A DNA stretch of 63,056 nucleotides, the filler included, from Atractiella rhizophila (Eukaryota): assembly GCA_021432655.1 (NCBI GenBank). It is 9 parts of 7 records of this genome, joined end to end, with 100 filler letters (N's around TTAATTAATTAA, not from the genome) between each part and the next. Parts side by side here need not be neighbours in the genome. Positions count along the whole stretch, not along the records: positions 1 to 9,736 come from MU271618.1; 8 more parts are not named here. The stretch is one strand, 5' to 3'. Position numbers and translations under genes: made by a program. The notes below the pieces were generated by a model. It was not told where the DNA came from. It was given only the letters and a program-made list of their open reading frames with translations, and ran no database searches. Each line of letters begins with the position of its first letter. Position 1 is the first letter of the stretch. Of the stretch, positions 216 through 61,918 are shown in pieces.

Positions 216-3096
216 ATGTGCGGCATAGCATTCGCCTGTCGCTCCTCGTTCGTCACAGCTCCCTCTCCGTGCCTCCTTTCCCTTCCCTTAAATCATTATA
301 ATAACTGTTTTATTCTTGCTCATATTACAATTCGTCTAAACAGCCTTACTCTCGAGCCATTTCAACACTCTGTCGTTGTATTATCTGTTTTCTGTCTTGA
401 TCTATGTGCCTAAACTTCATTTCAGTTATCACTCAAACGATGAAAGGTGGCGCTGACTGGCTGACTTATCTTTTCTAACGACAGATTCTCTTACATGTCC
501 ACTGGCCCTCCGCCGTCCTCCCCATCGTCACCGCGTTCCCATGCCTCTTCCTCACCCGAAGGTGCAATAAATGACCCAGAACTTGGTATACCATTCGAAG
601 ATGGCTCCAGGCCTACAATAGACAACATGCTGAGGGCAGAGGAGGTCTGGAAGGAGGTAACCAATGCAGTTTCTCCGAGAGGTTTGTGCATTTCCTCTGA
701 CTTGTTTTCCTTCTACTACACTGCCAAATTTTGTCTTTCTTTTCCTTTAGGTAGTTCTGATTCTCTCATTTCCTCCACATTTGGTTCTTCTTGTCTCTTC
801 GCATCCTTTGACTTCGTTTATTCATTTGCATCATTGCTCGCCTTGTGGATTCAGACGTCGGGATCCTTAAATTCGTTCTAGATTCATTCCTACATCAACA
901 ACTCATTACAACGGATGGACTAATGGATGAGGGAGCAGGTCCCGACTTACACACGGATCACATCAAGGAGATTTCAACCCGAAAAGGCTTCACCTTCGAG
1001 CTCAGGTTCCACGCCTCCGTCCTGCACCTCAGAGGGGACACCGTCGCTAAGCAGCCCTTCGTGGATCCCGAAAGCGGCGATGTGTTGATCTGGAACGGGG
1101 AGATCTGGGATGGACTCTCGGTGCGGCCGTTTATTCCTTCACTCCTCATTCCATTCATTTCATGACATTAACGATTTAATGATAACCTACATGGCTAACA
1201 GTCAGGTGATGACTGTAGGTCCTGCCACATGAAAACGACGGTGCGAAACTGTTCCAGCGCATCGTAACCGAAGGTCCTGGCAATTTCTTTTCCATCCTTC
1301 GCTCGATCGAGGGGCCGTACGCATTCGTCTACTTCCAATCCTATAATAAAAGGATTCTGTACGGTCGGGATCCATTAGGTCGACGATCGCTATTGATGCA
1401 CAGGCCGACGGCTGTCAACCCTTATTTATTGTTTTCTAGCACTGCCACGAGGAAGGAGTATGCGTTGGGAGATTGGGAGGAGGTACCAGCTGATTGTGTC
1501 CATTGTTACAATCTGCTCGATCTTAAGGGTAAATCGTGGCTTGTGCGTGCCTCTCGCCTTCTTATGCCTACCACTTTTTCTATCGCAATGTTGTAATTGA
1601 CGACTGTGTGTAGGTGGATGGAAAAAGAGGAATGGGTCACTACTCCCGACATCCAAAATCGCTAGGGCGGACACAAGATATTCTCATCTATCCCTTTGAT
1701 CGAATGTCCACTCTGCTCCCCTCCAATCCAAACATCCTCCTCCCCTACCTCGACGCATCTACAGTGACCATCACTCCCGAGCTCCAGCAGGCATTAACCG
1801 GCTTCCTTGGCGTATTGGAGGAGTCAACACGGAAGCGAACGACTGATGTCCCGAGATTGAACGGCCCCAAACCGCCTGAACCCCGAATTGCAGTCCTGTT
1901 TTCAGGAGGCATAGATTGTACTACCCTCGCTCTCCTCGTCGACAAATTTCTCCCCGCTGAAGAAGGGGTGGACCTTTTAAACGTCGCATTCGAGAATCCT
2001 CGTGCACTCGCTGCAAAAGCAAATGCTCAGGAGCGAGCACGGAGAGGACAAGGATCAGCGGGTTGGGGAGGAGCAGGAAACGGTAAAGCAGATGGAGGAC
2101 TGAGAGGAGGGGAAGGCATCTCAATGGATATAGACTTCGACGAACTCATAAGAGGATTCATCCCTTCTCCACTTCCTCTTCCCACCGCCCAGCCACCTCC
2201 ATCCAATTTAAACGGCAACTCTCTACAACGACTAGACGAAATTGAGGAGTCTGCTCCTCCAAGTTCTATCGCTTCTCCTGCCCCTGAACTCTCCGGTGAA
2301 GGGGGTGAAATCGCAGCCCTAGTACCGTATGACGTTCCCGACCGTCTCAACGCCCGTTCAAGCCTTGACGAGCTGAGGAGGCTGCGACCAAGAAGGCAGT
2401 GGAGGCTGGTCGAGATTGATGTGCCTTATGAGGAGAGTTTGACCGAGAAGGAGAAAGTTAAGGAGTTGATGTGGCCTAGTAAATCGGTCATGGATCTCGT
2501 GCGTTTCCCTCCCTTCCCATGAACGCTTGATGACACATATGGTACAGAGCATAGCAATGGCCCTCTATTTCGCTGCGCGCGGGAAAGGAACAATATACGA
2601 TGAATCGACCGATGTTTCAACTCCTTACACATCAGAAGCTCGCGTTCTCATCTCTGGTCTTGGCGCAGATGAACTCTTAGGTGGATATTCGCGCCATCGT
2701 CGCGCCTTCTCTCCCAGTGACCTCTCGCACCTGACACTAGGAGGGGATTGGGGTTCGCTCATCAACGAGATGCAGCTCGACTTGGATCGGATCTCGGTGA
2801 GGAATCTTGGGAGGGATGATCGAGTGATATCTTGTCACGGGAAGGAGGTGCGGTATCCCTTCCTCGACGGCAGTGTGGTCGAATACCTCAATGCCTTGCC
2901 CATTTGGTTGAAGTGCGATTTGAGGTTTGAGGAGGGCTTGGGCGATAAATTGCTCCTCAGGTGTTTGGCCAGTCAGCTCGGACTTGTGGAGACATCCAGG
3001 GCGAGAAAGAGGGCGATACAATTTGGGAGCAGAAGTGCGAGGATGGAGGTTGAGGAGGGCAAAGAGAAACCGAGAGGTGACATGGATGCCTCATAA
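216..3096 (+). CDS. Asparagine synthetase domain-containing protein (ASNSD1/YML096W-like), multi-exon
   Basis: N-terminal MCGI (Ntn-amidotransferase Cys2). Introns 248-484 and 682-938 splice to give RGPD. Also LHLRG..QP, WNGEI, GRDPLGRRSL, PP-loop VLFSGGIDC, SGLGADELLGGY, RNLGRDDR, EVRYPFLD, KRAIQFG. Confidence 0.92.
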
Positions 3097-3443
3097 TCAA
3101 CCTAATTCTTGGATTCGATAGGCTATAATGCGAACGAAGAGGAAATGTAACAACATTGTCTTGGTGTGCGACTGATGCGTTGTTTTGTTATGATGAACTG
3201 TGGCTCGTCTCATTTGGTGTCATTATGGAGGTCATGATGTGCAAGGGAATGCATTTCGTAGACAATTTGCGCGCATATTGAATACATAAATTGCCTGGAA
3301 CGAGTGATACCGTACATGGGCTCAAAGATTCGACGTTCGAACGAGACAAACAAAACTCTGGATGCAGAACTGTTTGGGCAAAGGTGATCAGACGGCTGTC
3401 AAAAAAAACCAGAGGAACGCACCACAGGGCTAACGAGACAACT

Positions 3444-6400
3444 TCACCTCAACGCAATCGGCCTTCGAGGCATAGGCGCCACCTTCCTTCCTCCCCTTGC
3501 AGCCCCACGACCAGGGCCACTCCCGCGGGGTAAAATAACCGTACCCCTTTTCGCCTTCCCTCTCGCAAAAGCATGAGCACTCTGGATAACTCCATCGATT
3601 GAGAGATCCGGTTGACGTTCCTCACTCTCACTCTCGCTCTCCTTTGAATTGTCATGGCCGCTCGTTTTGCGTTGAGCAGAAAGGAGATCCATCAAGTCTG
3701 TCTCATTCCCTGATTCTGATTCTTGATCTTCCTGTCCTCTGGAGGTCGATGGACGAGAATGTTTCAGTACTTTGATATGCGTCCTTTTCTTTTCTGCTAA
3801 GTCGAGGAGATCTTTCGAAGACGAGGACTCTCCTGACGAGGAGGCGCCTGTTTGTCTAGAGGTTCGGCGGATCGGTGGCTTGCGAGCGGAATGACTGTTC
3901 TGCGATTTTAGAGGAGGCGCAGTGAAAATGGTTTTTGGTTTAGATGAGATAGTTTTTAGCTGGCTCAACTGTGTTTTGGCTGAGGTAGTCTTCGTGCTTA
4001 TCGACTTTACGGGGGAAGGAGGTGGAGAGCTATCATCATCTGAATGTGACAGATGTTTTGAAGGGGGAGGTGGACGTTTCCGATGCGAAAGTGAGAGTGC
4101 GAAATTAGGACGTTTGGGAGGTGAAGGCCGGGGACGGTCACTATCTGAATCTTCCTCTTCTGAAACAGCTGGACGCTGTGGAGGTTTCCTCTTCGCCAAA
4201 GGTTGCCCGGATGGTTTTGAAGCCATGGCCTTTAGTGACGACCCCGCAGCCTTCTTCTCTGACCCATTTGCCGTCCTTCGCTGCTCCAGTTTTCGCTTCT
4301 TAACCCTCTCTTCCCTTTCGATCTCGGCGTCATCCTCATCCTGGTCCCGCTTCCGTTTCAGAATATCAGCTTTTGTTGTCCTAGCTCCACATTCCTGTCC
4401 AATTTCCCACCAATTTCCCGTTTGCACCCTCCTTCGGCTACTTGTTCGAGTCTGCGATGAAGACTGTGGAAGAATGTTTGCAGGGTTGATGCCCAAACGG
4501 CGTTTGAGAGTCGAGGTTGACAGAGGAGATGGAGTAGCGTCTGCTCCAGAACGCTGAAAGGCAGATAAACGGGGATTGACAGGTGTTTTTGAAGCGGATC
4601 GTATGGCTGGTGCATCGCCCAGGGAGAAACGTTTCCTTTTGCGTGTTCGAGTTTGCTCTGCTTCCGGTTCGTGAACTTGGGGAACGGGGAGGGAAAAGCG
4701 TTTCCCTTTCCTTTTCGCCAGTGCGCGCGGGGGCTTTAGAATGGGCTCTTCCTCTGTCTCTTGCTCCTCTTCGACAACGGCTGCAGGAACCTTGACAACG
4801 GTAGGCGAGACCTCCACTGCTCCAACTTTTCCTGTTGTCTGCATATCATCCTCTTCCGATACAGGTTCTTCGTCAACGACTGGTGCTAGTGTGGTAGCGA
4901 CATGAGGCAGAGCATCGTTCGCAGACACAATGTGGTCTTGTGCTCCTGCATCCTGCTCTGGAAGTTCCTCCTCCACAGTGATCTCCTTCGCGTTAGAACT
5001 TGCAGGTAGGGATGGGATTTGTTCAACCTCTGACTGGCCAGACGATTGGTATGGCGCCTCCTCTTCCACCTCCACCTCTGGCAAAGGTAGAGCATGATCA
5101 TCGAAGCTGGTCTCCACACCGTCTGCGCCATCACCGGGAATGCCTCCATCTTCTTCAAGGCCGACCTCCTGCTCCAAAGGATCCTCAGCCCTTGTTCTAG
5201 CAAGAGGCGCATTCGTGTCGAGATCTTCTGTGCGATGGTCGAGGTTTGTGAGAGGGTTGGGAAAAGATGCATCTGCGACTTCGGCAGGAGTGACATCTCG
5301 TAATACAGATTCTGGGAGCTGGCCAGTAGCTCTGGCTGGAACGGGATCTTCTAATCCTTCATCCTCTCGTGTCGGCATAGGGTTCCCATTCCGCGGGGAT
5401 GGATGTGGACTTGGCTCAGCAGCTGGAGCGAAGAGATCCGGCTCCGAATCTGGCAGCCTTTCTTCCTCCAGTGAAGAGGGATCTGGGCGGTCGTTTGTTA
5501 AGCTGAATAGAGCCGGTGAGGAGCTTGAAGGAGCTTGGATCGCCGCTAACTCTGTTGGAACCATAGCCTCTTTCTCGACAGGGACGGGAGGAGGTTCGAC
5601 GGCTGTCACGCCTTCGATCCCGCTCGTCCATTTATTCGACCTCAGCTTCTTCCTCATCGGCACCTCCGACTCCTCTTCCTCCCTTAAGTTCTTCTCCAAT
5701 CTCTCCTTCATCCTCTGCACAAGCCCGATGGGGACCGACTTCCCTCTATCTTTCGTTTGCTTCAGCGTCAACGTAAGGGGACCGGGCTCTGCTGCCTTGC
5801 GGCGGGGTGACTTTGATTTCGCCTTCAGTGAATTGTTCGACAGCCGCGGCGGCGAAGTTAGTTTTTCTTCTTGTGGTCTGGATCTCAATTTAGTGAGCTT
5901 GCGGGACGACGACGGAGACTTGTTAGCGACAGAGGGAGCTGGAGACTTCGACCTCAAACGCGCCGTCGAAGTCGCGAGTGGTGGAGCTGGCGACTCCTGA
6001 CCTCTCTTCCGCTTCCTGCTCTCATACCCTGGCGCACGGCGTTGATGTTGACTCTGCACTGGAGCGTCCTCGATGTCCACCTCATCCGTCCAATCTGCAC
6101 CTCCTCTTTCTTCCTCTTGCTCCGCCTCGTCAGCTGTCGAACCAGATTGCACCTCGTTCCCCGAACCGGGAGAAGACAGGGGTGACGAGAGAGAATCAGT
6201 CGTTCCTCCCGTGGAAGGAGGGACAAAGTGACGGATTTCGGAGCCGCCGAACCTGACAGAACGTTTTGAAGCAGGGAAGGGAGTGGCGATTTCGGGCGAT
6301 GGAGTGCGGGTTGGTGAAGGTGTGCGTACCCGCCGTGAGGTGACTTCTGCGGTAGCGGGTTGTGGGCGATTGAGGAGGAGGATAGAGGGACTAAAATCGT

Positions 6401-8296
6401 CTTCTGTCATCGTAGTTGCTGGAGTGCTAGGGACATTATTCTCGTCGAAGGTGGCGCTCCTTGCACGCCTGCTTGGAACCGCATTTTCTTCTTCAGGCTC
6501 TATTTGTGGTCTAGGAGGCGAAATGCCCTCCAGATCAGCAGAAGGAAGAACGACCCCCGTTTCCGGCAGTGCCTCAGTGGTGGTAGCGACGCCCTCCTCT
6601 ATTTCAGTAGCAACATGAACCGTCTCAGGTTCGGAAAGGAGCTCCGGGAGAATAAGGTTTTGTGTTTCCGGCTCAGGCTCAGGATGGAGGGAAGGGAGGG
6701 TCAGTTCCATATTGGCAGGTGTGGGGGGTCGCTCTTCTCGCGGGACAGGCACAGGCATGAGATTAGTGACGGGCTCCACCTCTCCATCATCATCTGTTCG
6801 CGCTGTCACATCCTCGCCCTGAACGGAATCGCCCATCTCTTTCGGTGCATCCGTATTGCCATCCGGGACGGTGGTCCCAGTCTCTTCAGCTGATACGACT
6901 GTCTCCATCACCACTTCCTCCTGAGTTGGGACAACGGGTAGCGATGTCTCTAATTCTTTCTGCACCGTTGGTTGTATGTGAGCGGATTCCTTGGCTGCGA
7001 CGTTAGCGGGGATGTGGCTGAGCGACCTCTCTCGTTGCTGTACTGTTGGTTCTGGTGGTGGTTGGGAGGGCGGCGCATTTGCTGGAAGGGTCTCAGCCAC
7101 AGGTGTTGGTGATGAGATATCCATGTCAACTTCAGCTTCCAGTTCTGGAGCACCCGACACTGCTTCCTGCGCCGTATTAATGGAAAGTTGCAGCGACTCG
7201 GACTCGAGGGGCGGAGGAGGCGGAGTTCGAGGAGAGAGACGATGAATGTTGGGATCTTGGATGCTCATCCCTTCTGCCTCCTTAGCAGTTTCTCCCTCTT
7301 GTACTTCTGCCTCAACGGCGCTCGCACTCCTCCCCCCTCTTCCTCTCCCTCTTCCTCTCCCTCTTCCTCTCCCTCTTCCCCTTCCCCTGGGCACGCGCAC
7401 TGTAGACTTGACCTCATTTGTCTGATCCACTTCCGCTGCTTTCTCCGCTTGAAGCCCTTTCCTTTGTCCCTTCCCCCTTCCCTTCCCTGATCCCCTCGGC
7501 CGTCCCCGACCACGCTTAGGCACACTGACTTCCTCTTCCAGCACTTTCTCATGTTCGACAGGCGGAGTAGTGTTTGGCGTCTCGTGCTCATTCTCCTCGC
7601 TCGGACTCGTCCCGTTATTCTTCCCCGAAACCGCAGACTTCTTCACTCCCACTTCCACCTCGCTCTCTTCTTCGCTCGAGAGATCGAGTGAGATGTAGAT
7701 CGGTTGTTTTGGTGGAGGGGGCGGAGGTGGACCTGCGAGTGAGGTAGGGACAAAGCGGTGGGAACGGTGGTTCTGGAGTGCGGTGGAGAGAGTGGTACGT
7801 GGGTGAGAGGTTGCTGAGTAAGATTGGGAGATGGAGACGAGACGGGAAGGGAGGAGGATGTCCCTTTCTGTTCCTTTTGATGTAGTAGCGTGAACGAAGA
7901 CGGGAGAGCTGGCCAATATTGTCTCCCAATTGTTTGGAAAGCCGTCCGCAAAGCCTTCAATCACGGAACTGTGCATTTCTACGTCGCCCATTAGCAGATA
8001 GAGGGAGGAATAGTTGCAGGAAGACTGACGAGAAGTTTCAAAAGTGCCATGGCCAATCAACGCGTACTCCTGGCCCTTCTCGCACTTCACGAGGTGGCTT
8101 CCAAGTCTCTCGACGATGGGAGTGGACGTGTGTTTCTGGCTCTCCTTTGGTTGTGCACGATCTCAGTCAACTGCTGCCCAGTTGTGGTTCATAGACGCGA
8201 GATGCGTACCCCCTCAAATGTACCCTTCAAGACCCATGCTCCCTCTCTGACCTCGTAATCCAGGCTCCAATGGCTTAGCGCTACCCTGTTACTCAT
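3444..8296 (-). CDS. SANTA-domain protein, KNL2/Mis18BP1-like, with AT-hook, long disordered region and CENP-C-like motif
   Basis: ATG at 8296; introns 8209-8145 and 8029-7979. Spliced N-terminus MSNRVALSHWSLDYEVREGAWVLKGTFEGESQKHTSTPIVERLGSHLVKCEKGQEYALIGHGTFETSQMHSSVIEGFADGFPNNWETIL fits the SANTA pattern (LxxW, V.G, S/T.I..R, G..Y.L.G, F..GFP.NW). TRTSSRRRVQTGNWWEI near 4401-4452; KRGRGRPRG near 7495-7520. Confidence 0.75.
7336..7388. repeat. Coding microsatellite (CCTCTT/CCTCTC hexamers) encoding a (GR)n tract on the minus strand
   Basis: Tandem cctcttcctctc units translate on the minus strand to RGRGRGRGRGRGRGRGRGG. Confidence 0.85.
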
Positions 8297-8475
8297 ATCA
8301 TAACACCAAAAACAGCCTGATTTCGTCGTTTGCTCAACTGGGTGGGTTGGCACTCAACCTAACAAGGTTCCGCGTCCACAACACTCAAAAAATTCCACCA
8401 ACTCTCGCCAACTGCACTCACTGTCTCTGCTCTGCTCCAGCTCATCTCGTAGCATATTCCATTGTTCCCTTCAAA

Positions 8476-9553
8476 ATGCTCAGGACTGCTTCCCGCTCTC
8501 TCGCACGCGCTGCCTTCGTCCCCCGTGCAGCAGCCAGGCTCGCCACTCCCCTTCCAAGGTCCTTCGTCGTTCCCCAGCTCAGAACTTTTGCTGCCACGCC
8601 TTTCAGGTCCGCCAGTTGTGCGTACTCACTTTCTTTGAATCTGCAAGTGTTTTGGACTGAGTTATACGTTATACGTGTGCAGCCGACCCTGAACTCTTGC
8701 GAAAGCTGGAGTCGGAGTTCAAGCATGAGCAGGAGAGCGAGGGTGGCGAGAAGGCAGAGGTACCTGAGAAGGTGCAGGAGCTAGCGAAGGACTGGAAGGT
8801 TAGTTTCTTACTTTCATAAAAATGAAAACGTGGTATTGATGGTGTGGTTGGTGTGACACGTAGTTCATTGAGAGCTCCCTTTCGGAAAAAGTGACGCTGA
8901 CGCGATCAATTGGGGATGAGACCGTCACACTTGAATTCCTCGTCACCATTCCTGAGGATGAGGTGCCACAAGAGGAGATGAGCGAGGACGAGCTTGCGGC
9001 TGAGGAGGAACCCGCTGCTTCGCTCGAGAAGAAGATGGGTGCGAGGGGACAGACGGACGTATTACCTGAGGAGCAAGAAGAGTTCGAGGGCCAGGAGCCG
9101 TATCCTTTACCGATCGACGTTACCATCGAGAAGAAGGGTATCAGCGAGGTTCTCAACTTCAAAGTCTCTCTTTCCGGTTCGCCCTTTCCTTTCTTTTCCA
9201 TCCCAGGAGTAGTCTTGACACGTTGGTGGTGATGACAGATGGAGTGTTTGGAGTGTTCGTCATCGAGCAAGTGCTTGTAGGAAAGAGCAAAGAGATCCTC
9301 CGAAACGTCGACTTCGATCCCTACGCTCCTGCATTCAACAGTCTGGACGATGCGCTCCAAGGCCACTTTTACGCATACCTTGAAGAGCGCGGTATCGATG
9401 AAGCCCTTGCACAAGCTTTACCCGAGTACTGTGATTGGAAGGAACAGAAGTATGTCATCGTTTCACGTATTAGAGAGGAGGTTCTAAATTCTTGGGAACA
9501 GGGAATATGTCAATTGGCTCAGCAACGTTAGGGACTTCGTTAAGAAGCAGTAA
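8476..9553 (+). CDS. MAM33: Mitochondrial acidic matrix glycoprotein (MAM33/C1QBP family)
   Basis: Arg/Ala-rich presequence MLRTASRSLARAAF and an acidic core. C-terminus YAPAFNSLDDALQGHFYAYLEERGIDEALAQALPEYCDWKEQKEYVNWLSNVRDFVKKQ* after splicing. Confidence 0.9.
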
Positions 9554-9736: not shown

Positions 9737-9836
9737 NNNNNNNNNNNNNNNNNNNNNNNNNNNNNNNNNNNNNNNNNNNNTTAATTAATTAANNNNNNNN
9801 NNNNNNNNNNNNNNNNNNNNNNNNNNNNNNNNNNNN
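9737..9836. other. Assembly linker (N-TTAATTAATTAA-N, 100 nt)
   Basis: The same six-frame-stop spacer also occurs at 16605-16704, 47238-47337, 50992-51091, 57265-57364, 58735-58834, 60427-60526 and 61819-61918. Confidence 0.97.
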
Positions 9837-16604: not shown

Positions 16605-17050
16605 NNNNNNNNNNNNNNNNNNNNNNNNNNNNNNNNNNNNNNNNNNNNTTAATTAATTAANNNNNNNNNNNNNNNNNNNNNNNNNNNNNNNNNNNNNNNN
16701 NNNNGAACAGTACGCAAGCCACACTTTCCTCCGATGAAAATCACTGTGCAAGAAAATTTATACCCTTCCTCATAAATCTTTGTTAATGAAGGATTGTGCT
16801 TGCCTCTAAACGTCTCGAACGACGAACATTACAATCCCTTTGTTTCTTCACTGTGCCCAAGTGGGAATTTGGTGTTACATAGGAATGGATCGATTCAATG
16901 ATAAAAGAGCAGGACGAGGTCTCTGGTCAAATGCTTTCCTGAGGAACGTTCTGCTTTGCCGTGTTTCTTCGGGGTCGCTCCCTTTTAGTTCTATCTCTCC
17001 CGAACTCAATGAGCCTGATATTCAATTGTGTCATAGGCCTCTTTGAAAAA

Positions 17051-29624: not shown

Positions 29625-30419
29625 NNNNNNNNNNNNNNNNNNNNNNNNNNNNNNNNNNNNNNNNNNNNNNNNNNNNNNNNNNNNNNNNNNNNNNNNNNNN
29701 NNNNNNNNNNNNNNNNNNNNNNNNNNNNNNNNNNNNNNNNNNNNNNNNNNNNNNNNNNNNNNNNNNNNNNNNNNNNNNNNNNNNNNNNNNNNNNNNNNNN
29801 NNNNNNNNNNNNNNNNNNNNNNNNNNNNNNNNNNNNNNNNNNNNNNNNNNNNNNNNNNNNNNNNNNNNNNNNNNNNNNNNNNNNNNNNNNNNNNNNNNNN
29901 NNNNNNNNNNNNNNNNNNNNNNNNNNNNNNNNNNNNNNNNNNNNNNNNNNNNNNNNNNNNNNNNNNNNNNNNNNNNNNNNNNNNNNNNNNNNNNNNNNNN
30001 NNNNNNNNNNNNNNNNNNNNNNNNNNNNNNNNNNNNNNNNNNNNNNNNNNNNNNNNNNNNNNNNNNNNNNNNNNNNNNNNNNNNNNNNNNNNNNNNNNNN
30101 NNNNNNNNNNNNNNNNNNNNNNNNNNNNNNNNNNNNNNNNNNNNNNNNNNNNNNNNNNNNNNNNNNNNNNNNNNNNNNNNNNNNNNNNNNNNNNNNNNNN
30201 NNNNNNNNNNNNNNNNNNNNNNNNNNNNNNNNNNNNNNNNNNNNNNNNNNNNNNNNNNNNNNNNNNNNNNNNNNNNNNNNNNNNNNNNNNNNNNNNNNNN
30301 NNNNNNNNNNNNNNNNNNNNNNNNNNNNNNNNNNNNNNNNNNNNNNNNNNNNNNNNNNNNNNNNNNNNNNNNNNNNNNNNNNNNNNNNNNNNNNNNNNNN
30401 NNNNNNNNNNNNNNNNNNN
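29625..30419. other. Sized assembly gap (795 N, no linker)
   Basis: N run; probably hides the Nudix start codon. Confidence 0.97.
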
Positions 30420-31767: not shown

Positions 31768-32217
31768 TTGAACAAGCCGGGCACGAACACAGTTGAGAAG
31801 AGATGTACCATTATATTCCAGTTGTAAAGACCGAATGGCGAGATGACACTCGCACTTTGCACAGAGAATGCACTGGACAAACTTAGTTACACGTTGATTG
31901 ACGCTTTTGATGACAATTAAAAGAAAGGTAAGCCAATCAAAGGCGAAGCATTATCAACAAAGATGAAGTAGGCACTGAAAGCGGAGAACTACTACTTGAC
32001 ATTGAAGTGCTCGATATCAACATCCAACTTGATTGCGACGTATGGGAAAGAATCAAGAAGTATGAACTGAATATAATAAACATGTTTTGCTTGATTTGCT
32101 TGGTTATACAATGCATGGGCTGGCAAGGGTGATGTTAGAACTGAGGCGAAATGTGCGAGTCTGGACGGAGAAAAACATCGGATGGAGAGGATGCTTGAAG
32201 CTCTAAACGGCAAAATG

Positions 32218-35200
32218 CTACCGTATCGGGGATCCTGCAATTCTTCGCTTCACCTTCTCGATACTGATAATGAGCTGTGCCTCCATCACAGGCCTGTTTC
32301 CTTGCATCAGCCCATAGACTAGCGGAATATTCAGCAAAGACGCACTTCGTTAGCACCTCGTCAGCACCTTTCCGCAAATATTCCTCTTGGTCCTCTTTCA
32401 GAGCGTTACCCGTCACACCCACAATCCAATCTTTCCTCCCCGCCTCCTTTATCTTGGTTGAAACCACCGTTCCATTGAGTACCGGCATTTGATTATCCAT
32501 GAAGATCACATCATAATGCCGTGGCTCCCTCCCCTTCGTGCCCAAACAGAGATCCAGTGCGATTTGCCCATTCTCGGCCTGTTCTACATCCAAACCCAAC
32601 CGCTTCAGCATTCGCCCCATGAGCATCCGCGTCACGGGATCGTCCTCCACGATAAGGCATCTCAAGCGAGTCGAAGATCTCGGATCTAGCTCTCCGACAG
32701 AAGAGTCGGTCCGCGATGTCGATGGTCGTTTGAGATCGAGGAAGGCAGCCGAATCCATCGATCTCCTCTTCACCGATACCTCAGAGTCAGACGTTATCTC
32801 TCGTTCGTGAGGCTGTGCTTTGGACCCCTTGTCCAATAGGATGGGAAGGTAACCATATTCCGTGTTGTAACTTGAAGGCGTCGAGATGCTGCTGCCAATC
32901 TTCGACAAAGACCCAACCGGAGTCAAAGACGGACGAAGTGGCGGACGTTTGGGACGGTCAACAGGTTCTGTAGCAGCAGATATTTCGCTCAAGAGTTCGC
33001 TGACTGGCTTGAAATCGTAATGACTACGATAATCTAAACCTGGAGTAGGGGGAGGAGCCGAGGAGCAGTCTGCTATTCCTAATCCGAACTCGACCCAAAA
33101 GCATGACCCTACTCCGTATTTACTTTGGACTCCTAGTCGACCTCTCGAGTGTTGGACGATACTTCGAATCAAGGCGAGACCAAGGCCCGTCCCCTTTCCA
33201 CCTTGCTCTAATCCTTGATGTGTTTGAACGTAAGGAGAAAATAGCCGGTTAGCCTTCATCTCTTCTGATTTGATTCCCGGTCCTGTATCATGTACTTCGA
33301 TACGGACGCCAATGTGTGAGGGGAGAGAAGGGATATTGGAGCTCCCAGATGACTGGTCACTCGGAAAGGGAGGGTAAGGGGTGAGAAGTTTGGTGACGAT
33401 GTTGATGGTTCCGTTTTCTGGCGTAAATTTGATAGCATTGCTGATCAGACTGCCGCAAAGAAAGTTAGAAAAAAAGTAGCAGACAGCCGGAAAAAACTGA
33501 CTTGGTTACTACTTGACGAATCCTGATTTGATCACCACAAACCAAACCGTCTGAGCAACACTCCGCCTCATTCTTCCTCCCCAATGCCAAACAGCCAAGA
33601 GCTCTCGCCGAAAGCTCCACCCGTTCATCCAAACTTTCGATCAACGTCAATTTTTTGTTCTGGCAGCCGACTCTTGCGCTCCCTAGCAAGCTCTTGATCA
33701 GTTTGTGGAACGAGAATGGGTTGTACGAGGTGGCGAATCGACCCGCTTCCATCCGATTGAAATCGAGCACGTCATTCAGTACATTCTGGACCATGACAAG
33801 CGAGCCTTCAAGAGCGATGAATTCGACGTTTTGATCGCTTCCGTCTAAGTTGTCAAACACTCCAGCCGCTTGCATGTTCTGAAACAAGATGAGAATCGAA
33901 AAGAATGCACTGTAGCCACATACCTGGACCGCGAGAAGAGCTGTGTTGAGAGGAACCTGATCCAATCATCGTTAACCACCTTAATATTCAATGCCGATGA
34001 TAGCTTACCCTGATCTCGTGAAAAAGATAGTTGAAGAACCGCTTTTTGCTGTCAGACGCTTTACGTTCTCTGACTTGTGCCTTCGCTAGTGCAATATGTT
34101 GCGTTTTCAACTGTTCTTTGAGGTTGAATGTCTTGCGTAGGTTAGTCTCTTGCATGTATGCCTGGAGAACGAGGATAGCGTTAAAGATGGTGAAATTGAC
34201 GACACTGCCGAGGAAATCTCTCAATACTGCCTTATAAACATGAGATGAAGCGAACATACTGTCGAATCCAGGTATACCGATAGGGGAGAATGAGACCGCA
34301 TGTCAGTCCAACCCAGTAAGCCGTACCTAGGATGGAAAAAAATCGGGATTGACCCATTGCGAGAAGGGCCAGTACCGGAGCTTGAAGGCCGTAGAAAAAT
34401 GTGGCAAGAAAGTCACGACCATGGCAGGACATCTTTTTGGGGTCATAATAGCCGCAGAAGTACAGGTCGTACAAACTAAGAATCCCAGTGAGCAAACTAG
34501 GGGTTAAGGGATGGAATGTACTTGGTCGAAGCCCATAACCAGGTTTGAACGAAGAGAGCGATTTGCCATCTGCTTGCAACTCAGTTTTAAAGGAAGGGAC
34601 ATGTCAGAGAAACTTACATCCACCACCTTTTAAGAGGGAAGTCGAAGTATACAAAGACAGGCAAGGCGACAAGGAGTGGCGGGCAGATGTAGCGGTAGAC
34701 GATGATTTCGACCTCTGTCCACGGCTCTGGGAGGAGCGCAAGGACAAATATCCAAATGACGACTTGAAAGAGGGAGACGCAAAACGCGATCCTTTTCTGC
34801 GAGTGCCACCACTACTCAAGGCCTGTAAGACGAGAATAGTAGACAAAACAGGCGACACACTTCAGTCTGAAATGCCAACTCGCGATCACGATCTTGAAAC
34901 GTCTGGCCCCAACAGAACCTCCAGATAACTTTTTCAGACATCGTTAGCCACCGGCTCTTCTTATTCACATCCATCTCTTCCAACTTCTCTTCGTTATCTC
35001 TGGAACTTGCAAACTTCCAGCTAGTGGGAGGCGGAGGTGGAGAACGGTCAGGCGATCGAAGAACATTGTCTACGATGATCTCATCCACCTCGTTGTCGTC
35101 GACTTCGGGGAGATCGATGACAATGGGAGCGGGAGAGGGATTCTCTTTTTCATCCGCTGAGTTTTCGAGGGAGTTGAGTGTTGCGAAGTGGGTGTCTGGT

Positions 35201-45664: not shown

Positions 45665-47708
45665 GCGTGTGAAGTGGAAAGGGAGAGGACACTCAAACGG
45701 ATTGTATTGTACACTAACAGGCTCATCGAATGTATGTGTATACTTGCCATGCTATTTGACCACGATAGCAGACAGTGGCAGTGAATGACTACAACGAGAA
45801 AATGAAGCTGTACAAGGATAATGATGGATTTCTGTAAATTTACGAGCATGAACCTGAAGAACTGCAACAATCAGAATATTAAACGAAGAGGATCCTGTAC
45901 ATGCATAAGAGGAATGGGAGGAAAGAACCATGGTGAAAATACAAAAGCAAGTCGCGCTAAAACATAAAGACCTAATTGCAGTGCAACCTTTTTAGCCATA
46001 ACGAAATGATGCGTTGGCAATGCACCTAGGAAATGTCCGTGTTTGAACCTAGTTGGTGACGTCGTAGAGCAGCAATTGGGGTAGACCCTCCTAACATGCT
46101 TGAGCCACCAATACAGGTAAAATATGTCACATCTGTCTCTTGCCCCTTCCCGCCGCTCAGTGATCCTATCGAGTATGCTAGAGTCGGAACTCATCGGACA
46201 ATGGCCATGCTTGCTTCGGGTGGATAGCAAGCTCGATGGATACCTATACAGTATTTTTCTCGTCGGAGTGACGATGACGACGAACCGAAAGATTGGTGGG
46301 TGCTTGGGAAAGCTCCACACGGCCGCCCCCTTGGGGATCAAGGGATTGTGTCTTGCGTTCGAAAAAACAAAGATGCATGCGAAGATGAGTAGAGTGGTGG
46401 GAGATGATCACGATACGGAAGGGCAGATATGAGAAGCGTTGAGGGTGGGAAGCGGAAAGAACGTAAATGGTCCGTCCTTTCCGCGTCATTACCTTTTTGT
46501 ATTTTCAATGTTATGCTTGTTGATCAAACTGGAACTTGAAGATTATTGTCTCATGCGTAAAAACGCCGTCAATCTAGCTGTACATGTAATGATCAACTCA
46601 GGGTCTCACTCTGTACTTTCTGAGATACCTAAACATCTTGTGTCAATCAGTTCATGTTTCTTCGCTGGAGCATAGTCCCATTGTTCCTATTCAATCCTTT
46701 CGTTTCTTCTCCTTATTCCGCTTCCACCCAGGTCCGCGTCAATCGACACCAATTATGCATCATGATTGATGACTGTCAAGGTCAGTTCGCCCACACTCTC
46801 TGAATTATCCATCTGAATTCGAATTGATGGCAACGTTGTTTCCATTCTTTGGTGTAATGCGGCACTTGTCAAAGTGTCAAAGTTTGTTTTCTGTGTTTGT
46901 TCGCTCGTGTACAAAGGATGTCCCCCTTCTTTGTCGCCACAAAGTTAAAGCTGAAGGGCTTCACGCGCCTTTTCTGCCCCTCCTACATTCCGCCACCGCC
47001 CCATTAGTTGAATCGACGATCCAAATGAGCTCGACAAATCTTCACCAAAGGAGACCTAGCATCCCATCCCTTACCTCACATTCTGATGTGTTAAAAGAAC
47101 TGCATCAGTGTATGAAGATCTTACCGGTTGCTGTCCAGCACATTGAAGCTATGCTTCAATCTCTAGCTCCTCCTCCTACTTTGAACTGCTTATACCAAAT
47201 TCACCTCTATCTTTCTCTCCTGTACGATGTCCTGCAGNNNNNNNNNNNNNNNNNNNNNNNNNNNNNNNNNNNNNNNNNNNNTTAATTAATTAANNNNNNN
47301 NNNNNNNNNNNNNNNNNNNNNNNNNNNNNNNNNNNNNCATTGCGTTAGAAGGATGTGACAGAGCTCTGGGTAGATGGGATGGCGGTCATCATTCGTGAAG
47401 AGGAGGAAGAGTTTGGAAGGTCCACTCTCTGTGGTTTTTGCTGACCCTATCGCCATCTTGGTTCGATAAATGCACATTCCTAGGATGTTGACAGCAATTT
47501 GTCGGTTTCGAAGAGTTCTTATATGCCAGAAGCTTTGGGTTTGGAAATCCGAATGTTTGGAGATGAGAGAATGAGTCGCTGCAAGATAAAGTTACAACAC
47601 CCAGCCTCTGACTCACCAGGCGTGTTCCACCGCAGCGTCATCGGACGTCGAGGTCATAAAGACCTTGCTGCTTTTCCTGTCACGGTTTTCGCTCTCAGCA
47701 GCTCTCCA

Positions 47709-50203: not shown

Positions 50204-53200
50204 CCTTGCGACAGCCAGCCGGTTCTACGGCTTCTCTCTTATGAAGAAGATGTACATTATCAACATATCAATAAGGGTTACCACCCTCAAGCTTCACTTG
50301 GCCGCGCATACCCGCCGAACAGTTCTCCTGATTCCCCAGCAACTTGTATCTATATTCAATAATCACCATTGCTGATTTGTCATTCTTTGCCAGCCTCCAC
50401 ACAGAGTCCACGGGTCTGATCTGCATCATGATCCTACCATTCTCTACTTCATGAGTACACGAGTATTTTCACGCGGCGCTATTAGTTCATTTTATATTCT
50501 TCGCCGTGGGCACTCTTATGTCCACGACCCATAGCTTCATCAAGTCACGTCAATGATTGAGTTTCGTTTTTTATTCATGTTCATGTTCTAGTTTTTGTGT
50601 ATTCAACATTGTCTTCAATTCAAATTAATCGCCGCCTCCAACGAAACAGTGTTGAAATACGTTGTTCTTCTCAGGTGGGCTATGAAAAAGCCCTTATTCG
50701 ATCACATGCGAGAGGGTGTGACGAATCCATGCCCGCGAGCTTCCACTTTCAAGCGCTTCTTCTGTTGCCCGTCCTGACAGGAAGTGCTGTCAAGTTGTTC
50801 TTCGTCACTTCCTGGGAGGACTGCACAGCGATCGTCGAGCACATCATGATCCTGTGAAGGACGGTCTGGTCGGCGCGACGACCGCTTGAAACTTATCAAC
50901 AACTATACCGCCCGTGCGGCTACCTAGCACCTAATGGCACTCAGCCCACAATTGTTCGACGGACTTCGCGTCATCAGCCCCTCCGGAATCGNNNNNNNNN
51001 NNNNNNNNNNNNNNNNNNNNNNNNNNNNNNNNNNNTTAATTAATTAANNNNNNNNNNNNNNNNNNNNNNNNNNNNNNNNNNNNNNNNNNNNCACCACCAC
51101 CAGCGATCGTCGCTCGAATCAGTGAATCTATCAAACATCACAATCCGACTGAGTTGAAGATATAGGAGAGAAATGTCAACGCACCGAGTTCCTCATCACC
51201 CCTTATCGCAAGCTGGATATGCCTTGGAGTTATCCGCTTCACCTTTAGATCCTTCGACGCGTTTCCTACCCATCCAAGCAATACCCCTCAGTCCTTTCGC
51301 TTCGGATGATATGGAAGGCAGAGGGTATACAACTCACCAGCCAACTCCAACACTTCCGCGGTGAGATACTCTAAGATCGCAGAACAGTAAACGGCCGCTT
51401 TCGCGCCGACCCTCATGTTGTATTGGGTCTTTTGCTTCAGGTACCGGTGGATACGTCCAACTGGGAACTAGGATAGAGGTCAGCTTGTGCTGTTCAGAGA
51501 CAAAACTGTCGATATATCCTAGTGAGAAACAGAGGAAATGCTCTGCGCGTTGGTTGGAGTGAGGGCAGACCATCCGACGAACCACCACCCCTATGAGACG
51601 CGACTGTAAAACATCGCTTCTGCTCGTTCTATCCACTGTACACAATTACCACGGCCCTAAGCAGTCAAATAAAGAGACCGATTTGCTCTCAAATCCCATT
51701 TGTCACAACGATACACGAGCTTCGGGTCTCGATAGCATAACAAAAGGCGCGTTCGTGTTTCGTCTCCTCCGCTCGTAAATTCCACCTCTACGAGGTCCTT
51801 GACATACAAGAAGAATTACCGCACCCACTTCTGCCCCCCAAAAATGGTTGAAATGGAAAAAAACAAGGAGCATACCTGCAATCCCGCTTTCTGGCTCCTC
51901 GTCTGCTGAATCCGATGCTCATGCGTACCCTTCGTCTTTCCACCCGATTTACCGCCAGTTGACATTTTTATCGATATTTGGCCTTTGCGAGCTAGAAAAG
52001 TGTGGGATTTGGTTTAAAGAGGGAGAAGTCGATGGTCGATTTTCTTCGGAGTTGAATAACAAAGTCACGTGTTACAGTAAAGTTCTCATGGCAGACTACC
52101 CTATGACTAAGTCACGTTGGGAGCATTTCTACTCGCCATGTGTAAAGCGAAGTAGCTACAACGCGTGATAGACTCTCTCTAGAGCATAAAATTTTACAAT
52201 CTAAACTGCCTACAATCTGTGCTTGAGTGAGTCAAAGTGTTGTTGCTCCCGCTTCCGGCAGAATTCTACCCAGTTCACAGGCTCAGGAGCCTCTTTCAAA
52301 CGTCTCCCTCAAAACAATACCAACCCAAGCATCGTGGACCCCCTTCTCTCCGTTGAAGAAAATTCCACCTCGTTCTTTACCCTAGTCGACTCTCACGAGT
52401 ATATGTTTAAACTTTTTCATCGTGGTACTCTTCATCTCTGTTGTCCTGTGGTGTCTGCGCATCGTAATGGCACCATGCCCAGTGCGACCTACTCTCGTCC
52501 AAATAGAACGAACCCCGATGAGCGAAAATGTTTGAGAACAGGGGTACAATCCTGTGATTGCTCCAGACTCATGCGATAAGTAGAAGCCATCAGAGCTCGC
52601 CACCAAATCACTTTGTTCAACAGAGGAACTCTTCCCCCTTTATCTTCGTCTAACAGATCCTATTTACAGTCGATCCCTTCCTCACGGCGCGTGCATAGAC
52701 ATAAAACGAAGGTGGAAATGATGCTCCGCGAGCCTTTCCTATGCACACTTGATTTCATCTAACAAGGATTCATTTGTGCCAAGGAATCACTCATGATTCA
52801 ACATACGACCCAACCATCTCCGCCGCCTCCATACCCTACGGACAGCATCTCACCATCCCAAAGCACTATTTCCAGAGAAAAAATTCGAACTACGAGCCAG
52901 AAAGTGGCGTGAATGCAAGCTGTCTGGTCCTACCAACTGGAGTTACCGCGAGAAAGCTGGACTTTCGGGGGGCACCTTCTTGGGCATCGTCGAAGTTTGC
53001 AATTAGAACTGCCATGAGCACCAAATGTCGCAGTGCTGGTGATAAAGGAGTCATCCACTCGCTTTGAGAAAGGAAGCAAAGGTTGACCACTCAGCCGGTG
53101 CTTCAACACCCAACACCCGAATAATGAGGAAAGGCGCTTCGTATTTCATGCTCCTATCATCGGACGAGTTGGATGTTTTCATGTCTGTCTGTTCTTCCAT

Positions 53201-57264: not shown

Positions 57265-57364
57265 NNNNNNNNNNNNNNNNNNNNNNNNNNNNNNNNNNNN
57301 NNNNNNNNTTAATTAATTAANNNNNNNNNNNNNNNNNNNNNNNNNNNNNNNNNNNNNNNNNNNN

Positions 57365-58734: not shown

Positions 58735-58834
58735 NNNNNNNNNNNNNNNNNNNNNNNNNNNNNNNNNNNNNNNNNNNNTTAATTAATTAANNNNNNNNNN
58801 NNNNNNNNNNNNNNNNNNNNNNNNNNNNNNNNNN

Positions 58835-60370: not shown

Positions 60371-60526
60371 GCTAACGGTCGGGGAAGGTATATTGAGGGT
60401 AAGCAGCGTAGCGGTAACCCCTAGAGNNNNNNNNNNNNNNNNNNNNNNNNNNNNNNNNNNNNNNNNNNNNTTAATTAATTAANNNNNNNNNNNNNNNNNN
60501 NNNNNNNNNNNNNNNNNNNNNNNNNN

Positions 60527-61818: not shown

Positions 61819-61918
61819 NNNNNNNNNNNNNNNNNNNNNNNNNNNNNNNNNNNNNNNNNNNNTTAATTAATTAANNNNNNNNNNNNNNNNNNNNNNNNNN
61901 NNNNNNNNNNNNNNNNNN

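Follow-up and report, generated by a model that had tools for sequence, protein, structure and literature searches.

The DNA that we analyzed, hereafter the window, is a stretch of 63,056 nucleotides (nt) from Atractiella rhizophila (assembly GCA_021432655.1), made of nine parts of seven records joined end to end. On the minus strand of its first part (MU271618.1) lies a gene that runs from 8296 down to 3444 in three exons and encodes a protein with a SANTA domain at its start. We consider this gene here as a candidate fungal member of the KNL2/M18BP1 family with a role in centromere licensing. All coordinates are positions in the window, and the features of the gene lie on its minus strand.

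A transcribed and spliced gene of three exons

At the level of the unspliced sequence, the locus appears as an open reading frame (ORF) of 1548 amino acids (aa) at 3444..8090, with a GTG start. A sequence-only reading of the window had proposed that this frame lacks a hidden first exon and that it reads through a 51-nt intron, and both proposals proved correct. Exon 1 (8210..8296, 87 nt) opens with an ATG at 8296, has an in-frame stop upstream, and consists of 29 codons, the last of them followed by a GT, in a frame different from that of the 1548-aa ORF. It is followed by intron 1 (8145..8209, 65 nt, GT..AG, phase 0), the ends of which are GTACGCAT...AACCAAAG, and by exon 2 (8030..8144, 115 nt), which encodes the middle of the SANTA domain. 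Intron 2 (7979..8029, 51 nt, GT..AG, with the ends GTCAGTCT...CGACGTAG) is in frame and contains no stop codon, so that the ORF runs straight through it. Exon 3 (3444..7978, 4535 nt including the stop codon at 3446-3444) encodes the end of the SANTA domain and a tail of about 1490 aa. When the window was cut at these proposed exon borders, the spliced coding sequence (CDS) of 4737 nt was a single open frame of 1578 aa. We also observed a two-codon upstream mini-ORF (ATG ATA TGA, 8294-8302, minus strand) that overlaps the start codon of the gene.

A search of public sequencing runs returned two in which words of the window occur, namely X2, with 0.71 of the sampled words and with no record of whether it is RNA or DNA, and X1, a root metatranscriptome, with 0.06. 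The contigs of both runs were placed on positions 3300-8700. One X2 contig has a joint at 7978>8030 which skips 51 nt, bounded by CT..AC on the plus strand, and which is base-exact for intron 2. Another joint, 8143>8209 (cut +1; seen in one contig, whose shorter side has 72 letters), skips 65 nt that are likewise bounded by CT..AC on the plus strand; it joins 8210 to 8144 and is base-exact for intron 1. Both introns, for which the sequence-only reading had suggested a check against transcripts, are thus seen in the X2 contigs. A third joint, 3369>3423, corresponds to an intron of 53 nt (3370..3422, GT..AG) that begins 21 nt past the stop codon; since the same contig is colinear with the window from 3423 to 4656, this intron lies in the 3′ untranslated region (UTR) and the stop codon is kept in the mRNA. 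From 3423 to 7978, a stretch that takes in exon 3, X2 contigs are colinear with the window, and no further joint was reported.

Because three GT..AG joints lie on one strand and a loose poly-A end occurs in the same run, X2 is most naturally read as complementary DNA (cDNA). The gene is thus transcribed and spliced. The coverage by X1 contigs is limited to 3677-4776 and to a neighboring gene, outside both CDS introns. When the 64 X2 contigs were compared with the window, 36 were at least 99% alike, 20 were 95-99% alike and 8 were 90-95% alike; with so many differences, X2 must derive from a different strain or haplotype or from a close relative. The contig with the 3′ UTR intron has a length of 2807 nt and continues for about another 1.5 kb across a gene for asparagine synthase, which is encoded by the plus strand (Pfam match at 2470-3093). 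This suggests either that convergent transcripts overlap here or that the assembler has merged contigs.

[quoted passage not shown]

The claim of a SANTA domain hidden by the exon structure was borne out by Pfam. The profile PF09133 (92 positions long, with a curated gathering cut-off of 21 bits) matched the unspliced 87-aa piece that consists of exon 2, the intron and the head of exon 3 (8162-7900) at 34.3 bits (E 3.4e-8), and it matched the whole 1572-aa frame at 24.4 bits. No other Pfam family appeared at E ≤0.1 on the 87-aa piece or at E ≤1 on the 1572-aa frame. The alignment pairs residues 7-81 of the piece with profile positions 31-91. Residue 7 is the first that exon 2 encodes, so that the break in the alignment coincides exactly with the exon border; its 75 residues for 61 profile positions fit a 17-aa insert encoded by intron 2; and because it begins at profile position 31, the 29-aa exon 1 fits the 30 positions that are absent from it. 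Exon 1 would then presumably supply profile positions 1-30, the N-terminal third of the domain. Taken alone, exon 2 matched PF09133 at 14.3 bits (E 0.057, profile 33-62) and the first 25 residues of exon 3 matched it at 18.7 bits (profile 73-92), with no other family in either case. We place the domain at 7915..8296, corresponding to spliced residues of about 1-89, with direct Pfam support for 7920-8144; the gene product begins with it.

The signature on which the sequence-only reading had relied stood in one part and fell in another. The Pfam match does end in the GFADGFPNNWET stretch, as had been claimed. The string GFxDGFPxxW, on the other hand, was found as a degenerate DNA pattern at 118 or more loci in metagenome contigs. 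After 12 of the 118 listed loci had been dropped (nine with a stop or an X in the motif frame, three too short), 106 ORF pieces were scanned against Pfam; among the matches listed, none of the 106 was a SANTA domain, and 38 were bacterial alanine racemases that carry the string in their C-terminal domain. A string found in alanine racemases is not SANTA-specific and is unusable alone as a signature. In a language-model Atlas feature search, which we treat as a lead only, the two top matches were SANTA clusters, with scores of 0.85 and 0.79. A single-sequence AlphaFold2 (AF2) model of the contiguous piece of exon 2, intron and exon 3 gave a pLDDT of 42.2 and a pTM of 0.31 and is unusable as fold evidence. 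SANTA matches in fungal proteomes are listed in domain databases.

The tail is of low hydrophobicity and rich in Ser, Pro and Glu (11.3, 11.2 and 10.8%, respectively), and it looks disordered. Measured in windows of 40 residues, the hydrophobic fraction has a mean of 0.19; it attains 0.30 over an extended stretch only in the N-terminal 120 residues or so, and over three short ones farther along. The tail holds 36 Ser/Thr-Pro sites and four basic clusters. A regular-expression scan found the core RGRPR at 7494..7508 (residues 225-229), which we take to be AT-hook-like, and an (RG)9 repeat lies at 7335..7388 (residues 265-282).

Near the C-terminus, at 4407..4448 (residues 1245-1258), we identified a candidate CENP-C-like (CENPC-k) motif of the form R-x-S-x-R-x-R-(5)-W-W. 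As a template for the CENP-C motif we used R-x-S-x-R-x-[RK]-x-x-P-x-x-[FYW]-W. The residues R1245-x-S1247-x-R1249-x-R1251-(5)-W1257-W1258 agree with it at six of its seven positions, with T1254 at the position of the canonical Pro. The pair 1257-1258 is the only aromatic-Trp dipeptide of the tail, and its distance from the RxR agrees with the template. When the tail was shuffled 20,000 times in each of three ways, a score of six or more was reached 11 times by global shuffling, 16 times by shuffling in 60-aa blocks and 14 times in 30-aa blocks (p of about 5.5e-4 to 8e-4). Basic clusters lie on both sides of the motif within 4290..4643, namely RKRKR (residues 1180-1184), KRKR (1275-1278) and KKRK (1294-1297); these could be nuclear localization signals or DNA-binding patches. 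Among the differences from X1 and X2 that were listed (40 of 110), the only one within the motif is S1248G, at an x position; six nearby non-synonymous changes miss the six motif positions, which is not significant as evidence of constraint. The motif is a candidate with statistical support, and it likely strengthens the assignment to KNL2.

Probable affiliation with KNL2/M18BP1

According to PMC11503545, all known KNL2 proteins carry a SANTA domain, in agreement with the use that the sequence-only reading had made of this domain as the mark of the family. In its predicted architecture the Atractiella protein is of the plant alpha-KNL2 type, with SANTA at the N-terminus, a candidate CENPC-k toward the C-terminus and no Myb/SANT domain. 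In plant alpha-KNL2, too, SANTA is N-terminal and CENPC-k is C-terminal, what remains is long and disordered, and Myb/SANT is absent; basic regions beside its CENPC-k may bind DNA (PMC11879092, PMC9210943). Unlike it, the Atractiella protein has a Thr for the Pro of the motif and an additional AT-hook and (RG)9 repeat, and phmmer finds no relative of it, the sequence similarity being too low. Plant alpha-KNL2 is also much shorter than the approximately 1578 aa found here.

With vertebrate M18BP1/KNL2 the protein shares the SANTA domain. The chicken and Xenopus forms have a CENP-C-like motif, which the human form lacks; CENPC-k, present in plant alpha-KNL2 and in non-mammalian vertebrates, is not universal. 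Vertebrate M18BP1 consists of an N-terminal Mis18-binding region, a SANTA domain in mid-protein and then a C-terminal SANT/Myb domain (PMC13501546, PMC11879092), whereas the Atractiella SANTA domain starts at about residue 6, which leaves no room for an N-terminal Mis18-binding segment. The likeness to CENP-C (Mif2) lies in two aromatics that come after a basic cluster at the same spacing, a layout described in PMC5371998. Unlike CENP-C, the Atractiella protein has neither the cupin dimerization domain nor any other CENP-C family match, and it is therefore not CENP-C. In the central region of human CENP-C, the aromatics are a Trp-Trp pair.

Among fungi, a KNL2 with CENPC-k has been reported in chytrids, where this SANTA protein is known from bioinformatics alone (PMC9210943, citing Kral 2016 and Sandmann 2017); this is an earlier report of the kind for which the sequence-only reading had left room. 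The text of Kral 2016 contains no fungal term, and the kinetochore survey of van Hooff 2017 makes no mention of Mis18, M18BP1 or KNL2. A search for papers on the SANTA domain in fungi returned none about a fungal SANTA protein, and no experimental data were found. Fungi are described as lacking KNL2/M18BP1 in PMC8351560. In PMC7618776, S. pombe and Drosophila are named as organisms without M18BP1, in keeping with what the sequence-only reading had said of fission yeast.

We estimate at roughly 60% the probability that the gene encodes a fungal KNL2/M18BP1-family protein with a centromere-licensing role, the role itself being entirely one that we infer. Such a protein would recognize existing centromeric chromatin and bring in the machinery for the deposition of CENP-A (CenH3). 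In this scheme R1249 and R1251, together with W1257 and W1258, would dock on the acidic patch of H2A/H2B and on the hydrophobic C-terminal tail of CENP-A, as the CENP-C motif does, while the AT-hook, the RG repeat and the basic clusters beside the motif would add non-specific affinity for DNA, an effect that has been reported in plant alpha-KNL2. SANTA, at the N-terminus, would serve as a protein-protein module that binds CENP-C or the CCAN (constitutive centromere-associated network), and perhaps Mis18; in Xenopus, SANTA binds CENP-C (PMC11503545). That a non-chytrid fungus keeps an ancestral KNL2 which recognizes CENP-A nucleosomes directly by means of a CENP-C-like motif is a more tentative proposal, to which we would give somewhat less than an even chance. 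The sequence-only reading had gone on to suggest an animal/plant-style pathway of CENP-A deposition in this fungus, which may exist but is at present purely conjectural.

A number of results weigh against the KNL2 assignment. Exon 1 alone (29 aa) had no Pfam match, and a PDB sequence search with the SANTA piece returned no solved SANTA chain. Word-index searches found no relative for the whole frame with residues 1-400, for the 87-aa SANTA piece compared with longer proteins, or for residues 1185-1290 around the motif, the search with the whole frame being probably swamped by low-complexity words. No true relative was found by phmmer when the SANTA piece was compared with 1.84 billion representatives; its two matches, both to multi-repeat proteins (5 and 11 stretches), were rejected as spurious. 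A protein-guided scan of metagenome contigs gave 458 pattern matches, of which none was confirmed, and the scan for GFxDGFPxxW yielded no SANTA relative among the matches listed. The Myb/SANT family was absent from the 1572-aa frame at E up to 1; as this DNA-binding domain belongs to the animal members only and plant KNL2 is also without it, its absence does not exclude membership of the family. The template of the CENP-C motif was applied after the sequence had been seen, its strict form with Pro had no match in the tail, where T1254 stands in place of the Pro, and phmmer found nothing in the PDB at E up to 10 with the 41-aa motif region. Finally, 21 of the 35 listed differences in exon 3 between the window and X1/X2 are non-synonymous (40 of 110 differences listed), from which it follows that the tail evolves fast.

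An alternative is that the locus is not a functional gene. Either the Pfam match would be due to chance, at a locus that is decaying or wrongly assembled, or the supposed introns would be deletions between strains and not the product of splicing. The lack of a homologue in any database searched and an X2 record that is silent on RNA versus DNA would agree with this. Yet the spliced frame is open over its entire 4737 nt, all three skipped segments are GT..AG on the strand of the gene in a run that also has a loose poly-A end, and contigs of X1, an RNA run, cover 3677-4776. Given further the E-value of 3.4e-8 and the independent matches of two exons to SANTA at successive profile positions, we regard a non-functional locus as very improbable. 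The protein could instead be a chromatin or nuclear scaffold that takes no part in CENP-A loading and in which the SANTA domain has been reused for another interaction; general binding to chromatin or RNA would then fall to the AT-hook, the RG repeat and the basic elements of the tail. In favor of this, the role of SANTA is still termed enigmatic (PMC11503545), and low-complexity sequence that evolves fast makes up more than 90% of the protein. We consider this unlikely, since in the sources consulted the characterized SANTA proteins are all KNL2/M18BP1 (PMC11503545, PMC8351560), the CENP-C-like motif is a specific pointer to CENP-A nucleosomes, and the chytrid proteins described in PMC9210943 show that a KNL2 with CENPC-k has been reported in fungi.

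A further alternative concerns how a true KNL2/M18BP1 homologue would reach the centromere. Contacts of SANTA with CENP-C/CCAN might suffice, as in the mammalian mode, in which case the CENP-C-like string would have arisen by chance in an Arg/Ser-rich tail. For this speak human M18BP1, which has no such motif and relies on CENP-C/CCAN (PMC13501546), the missing canonical Pro, with the strict pattern unmatched, and the empty PDB search with the motif region. Against it, only 11 to 16 of 20,000 composition-preserving shuffles reach six of the seven positions, the sole aromatic-Trp dipeptide of the tail is correctly spaced from the RxR, and basic clusters flank the motif as they do around plant CENPC-k (PMC11879092). 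A homologue of this kind, with a motif due to chance, thus seems quite unlikely to us, and a KNL2/M18BP1-family protein with a centromere-licensing role is the reading that we prefer.

Fungi are often treated as lacking KNL2/M18BP1 (PMC8351560, and PMC7618776 for S. pombe), and the recruitment of Mis18 without KNL2 has been studied as a peculiarity of yeasts. A transcribed fungal SANTA gene with a plausible motif for binding CENP-A nucleosomes suggests that the loss of KNL2 is lineage-specific and not kingdom-wide. If the more tentative proposal of an ancestral KNL2 in a non-chytrid fungus is true, the statement that fungi lack KNL2/M18BP1 would be valid only for the yeast models, and the licensing route of the plant and vertebrate type, from KNL2 to Mis18 to Scm3/HJURP, would run in at least part of the fungal kingdom, where it could be dissected in a fungal system. 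The gene offers a concrete candidate for localization and depletion work. It also holds a lesson for annotation: at the ORF level exon 1 is missed and the intron within the domain, being in frame, is read as coding sequence, and such errors could be part of the reason why annotations are missing or truncated.

The rest of the window

About 180 bp from the ATG of the SANTA gene, a divergent neighbor on the plus strand (8477-9530) encodes a mitochondrial glycoprotein of the MAM33/p32 type (PF02330, in two exon pieces). Its N-terminus resembles a presequence, and its coverage in X2 is far deeper than that of the SANTA gene. The genes of the window are ordinary eukaryotic housekeeping genes and include those for asparagine synthase, MAM33, eL18, POP1, a hybrid histidine kinase, NUDIX, alpha-galactosidase and Pol delta. 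Rfam had no match over the whole window. Runs of N, each consisting of paired 44-N blocks with 12 bases between them, lie at 9737-9836, 16605-16704, 47238-47337, 50992-51091, 57265-57364, 58735-58834, 60427-60526 and 61819-61918. There is in addition a single gap of 795 N at 29625-30419, which is why ORFs seem to be open in every one of the six frames around 29.5-30.5 kb; no N run touches the SANTA gene.

Several of these features bear on the kind of organism from which the DNA comes. With the eL18 fragment, the top-scoring PDB chains included those of S. cerevisiae and K. lactis ribosomes, plant and animal chains scoring lower; the other top-scoring chains we take to be from fungal ribosomes as well, the names confirming the yeast entries only. 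The Pol delta fragment scored 196.5 bits with 3iay versus 173.3 bits with 6s1m, which are presumably the yeast and the human Pol delta, respectively; in the Atlas search this fragment matched generic polymerase clusters only. An ORF at 32138-33505 on the minus strand contains both HATPase_c and a response-regulator receiver domain. This combination marks a hybrid histidine kinase and fits a fungal or other non-animal eukaryote. The intron lengths of 51-65 nt in the SANTA gene fit a fungus.

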